Shown piece by piece: positions 21,359 through 61,565 of a DNA stretch of 64,000 nucleotides (positions within the stretch are counted from its first letter, which is position 1; each line of letters starts with the position of its first letter). Made by a program: the position numbers and the translations under genes. The notes under the pieces are model-generated. The model was given only the letters and a program-made list of their open reading frames with translations, was not told the DNA's origin and did not search any database. The stretch comes from Eledone cirrhosa (taxonomy: Eukaryota). The DNA lies in NCBI GenBank assembly GCA_964016885.1, contig OZ024752.1:4402001-4466000 (forward strand), in the 5' to 3' direction.

Positions 21359-21527
21359 AGTTTTAATATAGATGAGATAATATAGATCAGGAATCCATGA
21401 TGATTTCTAAAGAATGAAACAGTTCTAGTCCTGTAGAATCTCATCTATATTAAAACTTTTATACTCTGCAATGTATTGAGTACCTTACTTACTGTGGTTA
21501 CCTCCGATTCAACCCAAAATAACGTAT
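21359..21527 (+). mobile_element. Short inverted-arm element with hairpin tail (putative Penelope-like pLTR derivative)
   Basis: Perfect 20-bp inverted repeat 21359-21378 / 21438-21457; tail TACTC-TGCAATGTA-TT-GAGTA. Confidence 0.6.
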
Positions 21528-21530
21528 ATT

Positions 21531-21826
21531 CATTTTCATTCATTTCATTTTACGTCCGCTTTTTCCCTGCTTGCAAGGTTGGGACGGGAACTGATTCTGG
21601 CTTGATTTCTACAGCTGGATGCCCTTCCTAACACCAACCTCATTTACAGTGAGTGCTGGGTGCTTTTTTGCCATAGCACCTCCACGACCACTTTGCAGCT
21701 GAGTAAACTGGAGCAATGTGAAATAAAGTGTCTTGCTCAAGGAAACAACATATCACCCGGTCTGAGAATTGAACTCACAACCTTTCGATTGCAAGGCCAA
21801 TGCTCTAACCACTAAGCCATGTGCCT
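21531..21826 (-). mobile_element. CORE-type tRNA SINE (internal deletion)
   Basis: Matches the 33291 family: head, core, RTE-like tail. Confidence 0.88.
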
Positions 21827-22341
21827 CTCTCTCTCTCTCTCTCTCTCTCTCTCTCTCTCTCTCTCTCTCTCTATAGGGGCACATGGCTTAGTGGTTAGAG
21901 CATTGGCCTTGCAATATATATATATACATATTCATGTGTGTGTGTGTGTAGTGTAGTAGGGAACATTCTAAGTGAGTGTGTCTAATTGGTTAAAGGAATT
22001 CTTTTCCTTCAGTGAAGGAGGTATTTATTAATTACTAAGGGCTATTCTATTATACACATAACTTGCTTTGTTTATAATTGCTAAGGTGGACTGCTTGTGT
22101 GTGAGGATGTGTCTGTAGGGTGGTGGGGTTACACCAGTGGGCAGTTTAGTTTTGTGAGGTGTTGTCATCTGACATATATATAATTACTGACAGTGTATAT
22201 ATATATATATATATAATGTGTGTGTGTGCGCATGTATATGTATGTGTGTATATATATATGTGTGTGTTTATATTTATAAATGTGTGTGTGTATATATATA
22301 TATATATATATATATATGTGTGTGTGTGTGTTAGTTATCTA

Positions 22342-22770
22342 TCTATATAATACTAACAGTTTGTGATTGTGTGCTTGTCTGTAATGTAATACAGCCAAAA
22401 GGGGCGCATAATGGGAAATACTTTGAAAGGAAGTTGCCCCTGAAATGGGAATACAAATGGAATAAAACAAGTTTCACGTAAATCTGACCACAAGTTCCCG
22501 AGTTATGGGGGTTTCTGGGTACTTTCATAAACAGAGAGAGAGAAAGATAGAGAGGAAGAGATAGTGGTTGTGAGAGAGTAGACTGTGAGAGAGTAGATTG
22601 AAAGAGAGAGAGAGAGAGAGGAGAGAGAAGGAGAATGTAAGAGAGCTGGTGGTGGTGTTGTGTATGTATATATGACCTTCCAATTTCATTTTACATTATA
22701 TGTCTATATTTTAATCCTTTAAAAATTTAATTTTAAAAGTACGTGACCCAACGGGTCACTGGTGGTCAAG
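22342..22770 (+). mobile_element. Probable non-autonomous Helitron
   Basis: 5' TCTATATAATACT; 3' hairpin GTGACCC-AAC-GGGTCAC followed by TGGTGGTCAAG (decayed CTAG). Confidence 0.55.
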
Positions 22771-22984
22771 TGTGTGTGTATACACACATATATATATATA
22801 TACATATATATATAGATATATAGATACATACATATACATGTGTGTGTATATATATATATATATATATATATACATATATATATATACATATATATATATA
22901 CATATATATATATACACACATACATATATATATACATATATGTATACATATATATATATACACACATACATGTCACCTATATAT

Positions 22985-23314
22985 ATTCTAGGGCGGGTAA
23001 AATTCCCGAGATCCATGGACGAGTTCTCTCCAGTGGTCTCTGTCCCTCATAATCGCTGCCATGTCCTGCGTCTCCAACAGACCAGTGTCTGTCATTAGGG
23101 AATCAACATACGTTAACCTTGGTCTTCCTCTTCTAGTGTGTCCATGTAGGGGCTCCCACAGGAGCACTGAGTGAAATGTCAACTCTGGATGTCGGTGAGC
23201 ATGTCCAGCTAACCTCAGTCTCCTCTGTGTTACTTTTGAGCTGACTTTTGGGAGGCTCCCATACAGCTGTGAGTTTTTCATCCTCAGTGTATACTGATTA
23301 ATGTTCAGAGCCAT
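22985..23314 (-). mobile_element. RTE LINE 3' end (non-inverted copy)
   Basis: MALNINQYTLRMKNSQLYG..RRLRLAGH..REFYPP*; same family as 5874 and 54170. Confidence 0.9.
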
Positions 23315-58237: not shown

Positions 58238-60262
58238 TTAAAGAAATTGGGGAGGTGAGTTGAGTCCATGAGGGAAATAGGACCGAAGGCGATGAATCAG
58301 ATTTTGTTCAGTGCTGGTGCGCGAGGTCTGTCATCCATGATGTGAAAGGACACCCAGGACTGAGACATGTAGGGAAGAAGGACCAGGGGAACAGAAATGA
58401 CGGGCGACAGGAGTATCCAAACCGAGTCGTATGTCCCTCAAATGCTCAGCAAATTGGTCTGCCATATGGCGTCCCGTTTGTACGATGTATAAAGACCCGC
58501 AAAGGGAACACCGAAGGGCTTAGACTATGTGGGTGGATGTGCAGGTGAAGGAGTGGTGGATACGGAATGACCTGTAAGAGTGGTGAGGGTGGAAATGAAG
58601 GGACAAGTGTTGCAGTGGGGATGAGAACAAGGATTAGAGCCAGGTGGAGTCGTAGGAGGGGGAAGAGAAGGAGCTGTATACCAGGAGGTTGCGGAGGATA
58701 TGTCGCCGGAATGGTAGGGTGATGGGGTGGTAGGTGAGAGGGAAAGGAACACAGGTGTTGGGAGTTTGTTGGTGAGGTGAGAGAGTTATGGTACGGTCGG
58801 TTTCACGGGCTCGGGTGAGAGCAGCTTGGCTGAGGGAGGGGTGGATATCCACGCTGGATGAAGCAAGAAGCCATGTGAAGGGAATGGCTTTCGAAATCGT
58901 CATCCTGGCTACATAGCCGACGAAGACGGAGGAATTGGGAATAGGGTATGGAGTGTTTGGTGTGGGTTGGATGGGAGGAGGTGAAGTAGAGGTAAGAGTG
59001 GGAGTCTGTTGGTTTATAGAAGATGGAAGTAGGTAGGAGGGTGTGGTGAGAGTGATTGATAGATAGAGATATCGAGGAAAGGGAGAGACAAATCGGAGGC
59101 GGTGGAGGTGAGAGCAGGATGGAAAGATAGGACAAAAGAAAGAAAGCAGTCGAGATGTTCTTGTGATAGAGAGGTGGCGCCGATACAGTCGTTGATATAA
59201 CAACTGTATAGCTCAGGAGTAGGTCCAACATACTGGGAGATGATCTGAGCTTTGACATAGCCAACAAACAAGTTGGTATAGTTTGGGCCCATTCTGGTTC
59301 CCATCGCTACCCTAGAGACCTGCTGATAGAATTCACCCGAAAAGGAAAAGCCATTGAGGATCAGAACAAGCTCAGCCAGACGGGGAAGAGTGGTAGTGCT
59401 GGGGTAAGGAGTAGAGCGTAAGTCTAAAAAATGTTGGAGAGGGTGGAGGCCATCATCATGAAGGATGACGGTATAGAGAGAGGTGATGTCCAAGGTGAAG
59501 AGAAGGCGAGACGGGCCAGGAGGGAAGGAGGAGTTGAAGTGTCAAGTCAAGGGCATGATTGGTATTGTGGATCTGGGAGGGTAGGTTGGTGAATAACGGG
59601 GCGAGGAGGGTATCTAAGAGATGATTTTGGTGGGGCAGTTGCACGTGGAAACGATAGGATGGCCGGGATTATTGTGTTTGTGCATTTTGGGGAGGAAGTT
59701 GATGGTGGGTGTACGAGGGGTGCGTACAATAAGGTTGGTGGCTGTGGGGGGTAGGAGAGAGGAGGAGATGAGCTCGTGGATGGTGGAGGACACGAGTTGT
59801 TTGTAGTCAGGAGTGGGGTCGGAGAACAAAGGGCAGTAAAAAAGGGGGGGGTCGTGAGCTGGTGGAGAGCCTCAGCCTTATAGAGGTCAACGCTCCAAAC
59901 CACCACAATGCCACCTTTGTCAGCGGGTTTGATGACAATGTCATCGTGATGCCGAAGGTTGCAGAGAGCTCAGTCCGCGTGATGTTAGAGCGACGACAAT
60001 GCTGGTGGAAACAGAACCGATTCACAGTACGCCGGCAAGTATTGACAAAGGAGTCGAGGGTGCTGAACTGGCCAGAGCTCGGCGTCCAATGTGATTGCCA
60101 GCGACTGAGACGAGTGAAGTCATCCGTCTGTGTCGATGATGGCATGTCGTGAAAAAAAGCTTTCAGCTTTAATCGATGGTAGAACCTTCAATCTCGGCAC
60201 GTGTGCGGAATTCGTTGGAGGTAGATGTGGTTGGTATAAATGCAGCTTGAGGCCCTCGGGGA
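58238..60262 (-). pseudogene. Frameshifted PLE RT / GIY-YIG endonuclease ORF
   Basis: RLKLKAFF, LPKMHK..PGHPIVS, DITSLYT, VAMGTRMGP, LPFLDI, YKPTDSHSYL..SSHP..SIPYSQFLRLRRLCS, CSHPHCNTC, LRCSLCGSLYIVQTGR, EQNLIHRL..PHGLN..*. Confidence 0.9.
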
Positions 60263-60620
60263 AGAACTCGAGCGTTCTGAAGGCGTCAGATCGTCGATCA
60301 TGTGTTTTCCTCTCTGATGTTGCTTCGTAATCGAATCCTGAATCTTACAATTCCTTTCTGACCTTTTCCATCATTCTCCTGCTGACGCTGAGAAAGTCTG
60401 AAATTTCCTTATTTGTCCTCTCGACGCGGATTCCAAGAAGAACTCCGTGTCTCTTCCACAAATTTGGAGGTTCAAAATTATTCATAATCAATTATTCTGA
60501 AAATAAATAATGGAAATATAGTCACTGTTTTTATGAAGACAAGAGCGACAATGGAAGTAAAAAAATTTGCATAAAATTAGCAGTTGAAAATTGCGAACAA
60601 ATATCGTCCGCACCCTGTAT
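60263..60620 (-). mobile_element. maT/Tc1-mariner transposon 5' end with transposase N-terminus
   Basis: TA-CAGGGTGCGG terminus; ATG at 60485: MNNFEPPNLWKRHGVLLGIR..EISDFLSVSRR..RKTHDRRSDAFRT (one stop), HTH-type N-terminus. Confidence 0.7.
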
Positions 60621-60777
60621 ATATAGCAAAGAAAGTGTGGTAAGAAACCAGGTGGACAATAATGCACCAGAGTACTTTATACTTAGGGTAGTAAAGTGGG
60701 TAATAGGAAAAGAGTCAGTTCGGATCTAGCTGTTGAAACGGCCGGAGCTCAGCCGTCGGGTCCTGACTCTTTTCCTA
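60621..60777 (-). mobile_element. Inverted-arm element (39118 family)
   Basis: IR TAGGAAAAGAGTCAG 60704-60718 / 60763-60777; tail ACTT-TACT..AGTA-TA-AAGT. Confidence 0.7.
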
Positions 60778-61076
60778 TATATATATATATATAAATATAT
60801 ACACTTTTTTACTCTTTTACCTGTTCCAGCCATCCGGGGATATATATATAATATTATATTATATAATAATATATTATATAATAATATATTATATAATAAT
60901 ATATTATATAATAATATATTATATAATAATATATTATATAATAATATATTATATAATAATATATTATATAATAATATATTATGTTCATACATGGAACAAA
61001 TGTGATACCCAAGGTGTCAAGGTGACCTTTCTTCAGGTGCTACTATGCGTTTATGATATATATATATATATATATA

Positions 61077-61270
61077 TAACAAAGGAGTTGTAGTAAGGAA
61101 CCAGATGGACCATAACGCACCAGAGTATTCAATACTTAGGGTAGTAGAGTGGGTAATAGGAAAAAGCATGACCCTGACGGCAGAGCTCAAGCCGTTTCGA
61201 CGGCTATTTCTGGACAGAAATAGCCGTCGAAACCGCTTGAGCTCTGCCGTCAGGGTCATGCTTTTTCCTA
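61077..61270 (-). mobile_element. Palindromic element (39118 family)
   Basis: ~55-bp near-perfect palindrome 61157-61270 plus family tail 61077-61156. Confidence 0.75.
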
Positions 61271-61280
61271 TATATATATA

Positions 61281-61565
61281 AATGAAGTATTTCCGTAGGA
61301 AAGATACAGGAAAAGAGAGTGCTCTATGTAGGCTACAGAGCTTATAGGTTATGTAATAAACAACGTAAGATAATTATTTCATTTACCAGTGGTTTCTTCA
61401 GTCGTCAGAATGAATAAATAACACAGTGTTTTTATTAAATAAATTGATATTTAATAAAAACACCATGTTATTTATTCAATCTGACGACTGAAGACAGACA
61501 TAAATATCTGCCTTCAAGAAACCACTGGTAAATGAAATAATTTTCTTATATTGTTTATTACGTAA
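61281..61565 (-). mobile_element. Palindromic element with hammerhead
   Basis: Arms 61349-61441 / 61448-61565; HHR CTGACGA 61481..GAAAC-CACTG-GTA; minus tail GCTC-TGTAG-C-CTACA-TA-GAGC. Confidence 0.72.

Follow-up and report, generated by a model that had tools for sequence, protein, structure and literature searches.

Penelope-like elements (PLEs) of the Hydra clade, which have a C-terminal endonuclease, were described by Craig et al. in 2021 (PMC8557442). As described there, they carry one open reading frame (ORF) in which a reverse transcriptase (RT) precedes a GIY-YIG endonuclease, with RW and DKT motifs, and SDKT, YRDD, a CxCx5C linker, CxxC, and CxH are the marks that define the clade. 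Their pseudo-long terminal repeat (pLTR) holds a hammerhead ribozyme, their targets are (TA)n, and they leave inverted, 5'-truncated copies with a one-sided tail. For Poseidon, a PLE from Anolis, the report of Frangieh et al. (2024, PMC11167929) states that both strands of an AT-rich target are cut, that RT starts at two internal sites matching the ends of the tail, and that RNA 3' of the starts is required; a dimer was predicted. Both papers indicate that the choice of internal start sites, and the origin of the inverted arm and one-sided tail, need further mechanistic work.

The DNA analyzed here (the window) is a stretch of 64,000 nt from the octopus Eledone cirrhosa (G000:C12:4402001-4466000), whose genome is 3.0 Gb and rich in TA microsatellites. 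A first-pass annotation had proposed that about 11 short inverted-arm elements in the window each carry a bulged hairpin at the start of the tail. We describe this hairpin, RCTC-[stem]-UH-GAGY, as a conserved and usually doubled motif of Hydra-clade PLEs that lies 6-9 nt past both points at which copies end. Our reading, to which we assign a probability of roughly 65%, is that it is a putative RNA anchor for the RT-endonuclease, fixing the internal RT starts.

The present elements share with the published Hydra clade the features given for it above. They differ in having tails of 67-92 nt rather than 30-40, full units of at least 3.5 kb in several families rather than <3 kb, and some hammerhead cores that are U3/A8 or otherwise altered. 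Poseidon resembles them in its two internal starts bounding the tail, its target cleavage, and its requirement for RNA 3' of the starts, but its starts lie in an AC-rich stem loop without target homology, and the main text describes no conserved or doubled motif. The octopus elements, in contrast, have a doubled, covarying hairpin 3' of each end, and the ends have 1-4 nt in common with (TA)n. The clade, the tail, and internal initiation are already published, and the hairpin is apparently undescribed. No hairpin or stem-loop is named in the main text and supplement text of PMC8557442, though its consensi hold the motif, nor is it mentioned in the available portions of PMC4209133 and PMC7761336; we found no description in the literature, a coverage outside which Repbase, Dfam, and figure images fall. 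A 20-30-nt motif at a fixed offset offers a directly testable role, and serves as an annotation marker for a very abundant repeat class.

Results

A bulged hairpin in excess of chance

Under strict criteria, scanning the window yielded 8 matches, compared to a mean of 1.0 and a maximum of 5 in 30 local dinucleotide shuffles. Seven of these were instances from the first-pass annotation, and one, at 41568, was additional. We then used a 664-kb set made up of the window and of loci L061-L120, which comprise 400 kb adjoining the window and 200 kb from four other contigs. Here RCTC-stem-NN-GAGY with a 2-nt 3' bulge was found 131 times versus 45-65 times in five shuffles, about 75 matches above chance, which answers the concern that hits might be equally frequent in shuffled sequence. 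Versions with bulges of 1, 3, or 4 nt were not enriched (46, 64, and 38 matches), and the bulge-free version was slightly above the shuffles (87 versus 47-79). By bulge letters, TT was observed 52 times (8.0 expected), TA 14 times (3.8), and TC 10 times (1.4). The bulge had been proposed to be TT, TA, or CT; TT and TA were enriched, but CT was not (1 observed versus 3.6 expected). Since the excess is limited to TT, TA, and TC, the motif is written RCTC-[stem]-UH-GAGY.

Covariation at a fixed distance from the arm end

All 11 window elements are bounded by (TA)n and consist of an inverted arm, a further arm, and a tail, in this order. X denotes the point where the arm ends, and Y that where the tail ends. 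Candidates with arm, tail, and TA were picked without use of the motif from octopus loci and from loci of G004, a metagenome-assembled genome (MAG) containing animal DNA, yielding 151 copies in 55 clusters. CTC..GAG was present in 69 of the 151, and started 6-8 nt past X in 57 of these and 6-9 nt past X in 62, in keeping with the proposed link of the hairpin to the inverted arm. The other clusters comprised ends of Neptune-like type, arms arising by chance, and unexplained cases; all were set aside before pairing was scored. Pairing was scored in 18 clusters chosen by the sequence motif alone at an offset of 4-11, with permutation at the cluster level. The outer pair was Watson-Crick in 16 of 18 clusters (10 G-C, 6 A-T; permutation mean 9.0, p = 4e-4), and upper pairs 1, 2, and 3 were paired in 17, 14, and 13 clusters (permutation means 6.9, 6.6, and 4.5; p = 5e-5, 2e-4, and 5e-5), p-values that disregard the relatedness of the clusters and are therefore optimistic. 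All four pair types were represented at the first upper pair, and RCT often came after the motif (9/18 clusters). Upper stems that differ in sequence and still pair (p <= 2e-4) and compensation between ACTC/GAGT and GCTC/GAGC at the outer basal pair, both claimed in the first-pass annotation, are therefore borne out. Covariation in 18 clusters together with the fixed arm-end offset also upholds its broader proposal of a conserved cis-acting structure common to several Penelope-like families, with a putative function as an RT or endonuclease signal.

The hairpin starts ~55-110 nt 3' of the hammerhead core. We considered whether it was a stem of the ribozyme and rejected this, as it lies outside stems I-III around the CUGANGA/GAAA core. 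G-U pairs in the stems, and a C(UUCG)G loop in the second hairpin of family H1 (see below), point weakly to RNA. These features bear on an alternative in which the motif acts as DNA: the GIY-YIG endonuclease would recognize it within a tandem copy, or within cDNA exceeding unit length, and would cut a TA-like site 6-9 nt upstream, X and Y being resolution cuts. TA-like sequence is present at both X and Y, the tail has been ascribed to endonuclease-mediated resolution (PMC8557442), and PMC11167929 refers to earlier results according to which the D. virilis endonuclease depended on the tail in plasmid DNA. We nonetheless regard this explanation as unlikely. Stems that covary and include G-U pairs, together with the UUCG loop, better suit single-stranded RNA, tail ends were mapped to RT starts in vitro (PMC11167929), and the strict X/Y pairing described below would be expected directly from two primed starts.

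Parent elements of the Hydra clade

Long upstream flanks of hairpin copies led to ORFs having SDKT, YRDD, CxCx5C, CxxC, and CxH. Six octopus families, H1-H6, were followed from ORF to hairpin, and the motif is thus carried by autonomous PLEs with RT and GIY-YIG, a point raised in the first-pass annotation. H1 (713 aa), H2 (821 aa), and H3 (717-719 aa) each have a single ORF with an RT containing YRDD followed by a C-terminal GIY-YIG-type endonuclease region. DKG is replaced by DKT, within SDKT, in H1-H6. The RW[RT] motif is present in H1, H2, H3, and H5, the H4 and H6 frames being without the N-terminus. The CxCx5C linker was found in 9/9 ORFs, and CxxC and CxH in 8/9, the H4 frame ending early; CCHH was not present in H1-H3 as read by eye. 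A quick tree, made without published Hydra proteins, placed the nine Hydra-type ORFs (six from octopus, three from G004) on one side of a long branch versus 32 other PLE rows, with a Shimodaira-Hasegawa-like approximate likelihood ratio (SH-aLRT) support of 100. The AlphaFold model of H1 had a predicted local distance difference test (pLDDT) score of 92.3, and its top five Foldseek matches were telomerase reverse transcriptases (TERTs), the modeled TERT-like fold being as expected for a PLE; a PDB sequence search gave no match.

Canonical hammerhead cores were found in H2, H4, H5, H6, and the G004 families, one G004 locus having the hammerhead of the published Hydra-2_Amil. The cores of H3 (U3/A8) and H1 (CAGAAGA) are non-canonical. 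The insertion target of hairpin-bearing elements is (TA)n. H3 forms tandem units of 3.54 kb, and the pattern of this one family had 25,358 exact matches in the genome. Rfam covariance models gave a tRNA-like match alone in the window and none at E <= 1 for 601 nt of the full H3 pLTR. On the evidence of other PLE loci (see below), the motif belongs to the Hydra clade and not to PLEs in general.

A miniature inverted-repeat transposable element or other DNA transposon was rejected, given the one-sided tail after the second arm and an arm span that can measure tens of nt or reach kb lengths, extending into an RT ORF. Locus L120 was likewise set aside as proof that family 13 is autonomous, as it is an H1 ORF fused to another 3' end: at L120 (- strand, 3984-6083; 3' flank, L219), a short common sequence links the H1 ORF to the 3' end of a different hairpin family, possibly by a template switch between families. 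Tandem hammerhead repeats resembling retrozymes were also seen at L079 (+ strand, 5607-6850, 310 bp) and L051 (+ strand, 8168-9653, ~490 bp).

A second hairpin past the tail end

The motif is usually present twice per full element, the layout being hammerhead, X, hairpin 1, tail, Y, hairpin 2, ATG. In H1, TAT-TTG and then GCTC-C-TTCG-G-TT-GAGC-ACTC come after the end of the tail (9 of 14 printed copies, 16 fetched). Hairpin 2 lies 6-8 nt past Y in H1, H2 (12 of 13 copies), H5 (one copy), and one G004 family (one copy, L348). The second hairpin of H3 was predicted beforehand: the tail end plus RCTC had 334 genome matches versus 0 in the control, and all 12 fetched H3 loci completed the hairpin (GCTC, a CTA-led upper stem, a TA or TC bulge, and GAGC), beyond which lay a 5' region of Hydra type; both loci that were translated had a Hydra ORF downstream. 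In H2 and H3 the outer pair is A-U in hairpin 1 and G-C in hairpin 2. A complete second hairpin was thus found in four octopus families and one coral-like family, and a reduced one in one family, H4. The H4 junction with the reduced hairpin was visible in 18/20 loci; pattern searches for a canonical second hairpin in H4 gave 3 and 1 matches, with no tandem junction where viewed.

Hairpins 1 and 2 are spaced 67-92 nt apart, and hairpin 2 lies 38-87 nt upstream of the ATG. The latter position, and the prediction of cross-pairing between the hairpins as the minimum-energy fold in H1 and H3, would suit an alternative in which the two hairpins form a switch: cross-pairing would loop out the tail and control hammerhead folding or ORF translation, and ends would fall nearby only since the larger fold blocks or loads the RT. 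We find this improbable. The upper stem of each hairpin covaries independently, H1 retains both hairpins despite its changed hammerhead core, and a switch leaves the 6-9-nt offset at both sites unexplained.

Two end classes and their pairing in inverted insertions

Of 29 H1 copies found via the ORF, 15 ended at X, 13 at Y, and one had no anchor; for H4, 9 copies ended at X and 14 at Y (n = 23). The X and Y sites each have 1-4 nt in common with (TA)n. Inverted pairs without an inner TA run numbered 52, and the 21 that were fully classed comprised 20 X/Y, 0 X/X, and 1 Y/Y, an excess of X/Y with p = 1e-5 compared to the 50% expected under independent choice.

Full-length 5' junctions fell in or beside the hairpin window in 11 of 24 cases versus 6.7 expected, with p = 0.047 using the best references and p = 0.11 using one reference, which we take as a lead only (L279, L280, L286, L287, and L290 for H1; L336 and L344 for H2; L412, L413, L416, and L421 for H4). 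One possibility is that RT stalls at the hairpin once a full round is complete.

These data also bear on the possibility that the hairpin marks RNA processing, with cleavage or trimming of the transcript at a distance of a few nt, 5' of each hairpin, after which RT would prime from normal RNA 3' ends lying at X and Y. Processing of this kind would likewise give fixed offsets and two classes of ends, and the lean of full-length 5' junctions toward hairpins (11/24, p 0.047) could be produced by RNA 5' ends there. It would, however, require two differently cut RNAs per insertion to give 20 X/Y pairs out of 21, and in PMC11167929 a 3' extension left the main product unchanged and hammerhead cleavage was unnecessary. 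We hold processing to be doubtful, a little more so than recognition of the motif as DNA.

The hairpin in other animals and in other PLEs

Six published Hydra consensi in File S7 of PMC8557442 were inspected by eye. The full motif is present in the 3' tail of Hydra-2_Amil (coral) and Hydra-2_Ajap (sea cucumber), Hydra-1_Ajap has it twice upstream of the ATG, and a variant whose bulge is AG occurs in Hydra-1_Crog (copepod). The Hydra-1_Amil and Hydra-1_Obim consensi showed no hairpin after the hammerhead. G004 carries Hydra ORFs, and none were found in the other MAGs (12 MAGs searched) or in a Hydra search of viral contigs. Among G004 loci, five distinct hairpins were flagged by script, two by eye (L259, L264), and one more among the motif-blind candidates. 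Bacterial MAGs hold many animal PLE contigs (G004: L249-L278, L295-L298, L347-L353; also L201-L218), which are most simply host contamination.

The best GIY-YIG Pfam matches in the octopus genome were to families that are Neptune-like by their linker. We rejected these as parents of the hairpin elements, the motif being present in part only. The Neptune-like PLEs of this genome (families A-F) resemble the Hydra elements in having a hammerhead and two end classes, but differ in lacking the GAGY partner, in showing no second hairpin in A, and in forming a separate tree branch. Families A and E have ACTC, a stem, and CT or TT a few nt past X with no GAGY partner (L041, - strand, 6449 onward; 3' ends of L057 and L058), and this partial motif is a possible distant relative of the hairpin. 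Of 98 loci from a Neptune-type alignment, 36 had a hammerhead with at least 150 nt after it, and among these there was one sequence-only match, 190 nt away, some contigs possibly lacking the tail. U3/A8 hammerhead cores (TTGANAA, for C3/G8) were seen in Neptune-like A, B, E, and F as well as Hydra H3 (L041, - strand, 1470; L035, + strand, 2204; L060, 3' untranslated region; L319-L330). A further family, with five copies among the candidates, has a TA-flanked arm and a 60-nt tail without a hairpin (L095, + strand, 240; L091, - strand, 5834; L059).

A proposed role in two-ended priming

The putative anchor can be extended into a model that we consider about as likely to be right as wrong, in which Hydra PLEs, from cnidarians to echinoderms and molluscs, have retained a twofold RNA "ruler" that places two telomerase-like RTs on the same RNA, priming both cut ends of (TA)n at once. 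In the anchor reading itself, the element protein would cut (TA)n on both strands, as shown in vitro for the Poseidon element alone (PMC11167929), and each cut 3' end would pair with the 1-4-nt UA stretch just 5' of a hairpin. Each hairpin would be bound by the element protein, setting the start 6-9 nt upstream, and two RTs, one per hairpin, would copy the one RNA in opposite directions. The cDNAs would join at a stall point, leaving an inverted arm that ends at X and a direct arm plus tail that ends at Y. Hairpin 1 would be copied by the Y-primed cDNA only, and hairpin 2 would appear only in tandem or full-length copies; short copies would thus show a single hairpin at the start of the tail. 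This is the simplest reading from which all of the following would result: the arm and one-sided tail, end classes in a ratio near 1:1, the pairing of X with Y, and the lone hairpin of short copies, with binding, priming, and the dimer being what we infer.

In telomerase RNA, the template boundary element and CR4/5 set template limits on TERT. Elements of this kind are small helices bound by protein, at a constant distance from a template inside the RNA; the boundary element is located 5' of that template and halts copying. The hairpin here lies 3' of the presumed start rather than 5' of a template and has no sequence or Rfam match, and any likeness would be one of function only. As PLE RTs are the sister group of telomerase, how their start sites are chosen bears on the positioning of internal RNA templates. 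If the model is true, two-ended target-primed reverse transcription would explain the PLE tail and inverted arm, and would be the simplest model of internal template choice by a TERT-like RT; a programmable internal start site may also serve RNA-templated DNA writing.

Besides the optimism of the permutation p-values, a number of results weigh against the hairpin as an anchor. Two end classes also occur in the Neptune-like families A, C, and E, which lack the paired basal stem, and the full motif is therefore not needed for a tail in PLEs generally. Basal pairs 2-4 are nearly invariant. With ViennaRNA, the basal-pair probability was >= 0.85 in 4 of the 11 window copies and <= 0.19 in the other 7, and the complete bulged fold was dominant at 51756 alone. 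Both hairpins appear together in the minimum-energy fold of H5 only, and for H1 and H3 the predicted fold joins the 5' strand from hairpin 1 to the 3' strand from hairpin 2. The second hairpin of H4 is reduced (GCAC-TCTCT-GTGC, 9 nt past Y), yet both end classes occur, and pattern searches for a second hairpin in the family of the window element at 61341 gave two matches, both through TA runs. Of the 52 inverted pairs, 31 could not be fully classed. Finally, a direct tie to an ORF is missing for 7 of the 11 window elements, 5 of which are without even an indirect tie.

Hairpins and associated features of the window

All 11 hairpin sequences of the first-pass annotation are present in the window, with those given as 21462 and 33731 starting one base later, at ACTC. 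Inverted arms were detected by script for 10 of the 11 elements, ending 6-11 nt before the hairpin; those of the element at 33732 were recovered by BLAST (70%). Several families are represented, as claimed, but not 11 different ones: 39205, 60697, and 61150 are of one family, and 32503 and 47085 are close relatives. Four of the 11 short elements (21463, 39205, 60697, and 61150) correspond to a coding Hydra element in both pLTR and tail; the tie is indirect for 32503 and 47085, through a hammerhead cluster in common with the H6 end. Those short elements whose origin could be followed derive from coding elements, as truncated products of insertion.

On the + strand, the H4 hairpin 1 at 21463..21481 (ACTC-TGC..GTA-TT-GAGT) lies in an element from 21360 to ~21524, with X at 21456, that is 95% identical to the full-length H4 locus L391. 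At 32905..32924 (element 32731-32964), a hairpin 1 variant had been assigned a CT bulge. This was a mis-register, as two other copies of the family read ACTC-GTCC-CAT-GGAC-T-GAGT, with a 1-nt U bulge. The hairpin at 33732..33757 (ACTC-TAAGG..CCTTA-TT-GAGT) lies in element 33642-33834, whose arms are diverged; no ORF link was found for either of these two families. The H3 hairpin 1 at 39205..39228 (ACTC-TACT..AGTA-TT-GAGT) belongs to element 39120-39276, with X at 39196, which is 99% identical to the tandem array L398.

On the - strand, the hairpin at 32479..32503 (ACTC-CAG..CTG-TT-GAGT; element 32417-32692) belongs to the element whose hammerhead relates it to H6, and its relative at 47059..47085 (element 46996-47258) has an imperfect hairpin with a G-U outer pair and a C-A mismatch at the first upper pair. 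The hairpin at 51137..51196 (ACTC-CGTA..TACG-TT-GAGT) has a long loop, and no ORF link was found for its element (51060-51392). Those at 51727..51756 (GCTC-GGA..TCC-TA-GAGC; element 51635-52340) and 61321..61341 (GCTC-TGTAG..CTACA-TA-GAGC; element 61281-61564) both have the TA bulge, the latter belonging to the family without a detected second hairpin. The remaining two hairpins are 88% matches to H3: one at 61127..61150 (element 61079-61268) with one basal mismatch (GAAT), and one at 60674..60697 (element 60626-60775) altered to ACTT/AAGT. The latter change had been taken as basal compensation, a claim that falls away because the copy is of the same family as 39205 and 61150 and is not seen as a family variant; the double change occurred in none of the first 100 listed of the 25,358 genome matches, among which ACTT/GAGT occurred once and ACTC/AAGT three times.

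Hammerhead cores lie on the + strand in the inverted arms of elements 32503 (32591..32629), 51196 (51288..51329), and 61341 (61481..61521). Two related canonical cores, at 36394-36417 (+) and 57766-57789 (-), have neither an inverted arm nor a TA-bounded hairpin tail. A tRNA-like short interspersed nuclear element (SINE) head lies at 51810-51867 (+), between the arms of element 51756, and sequence belonging to this repeat also follows the tail of 21463, from ~21530 (+).

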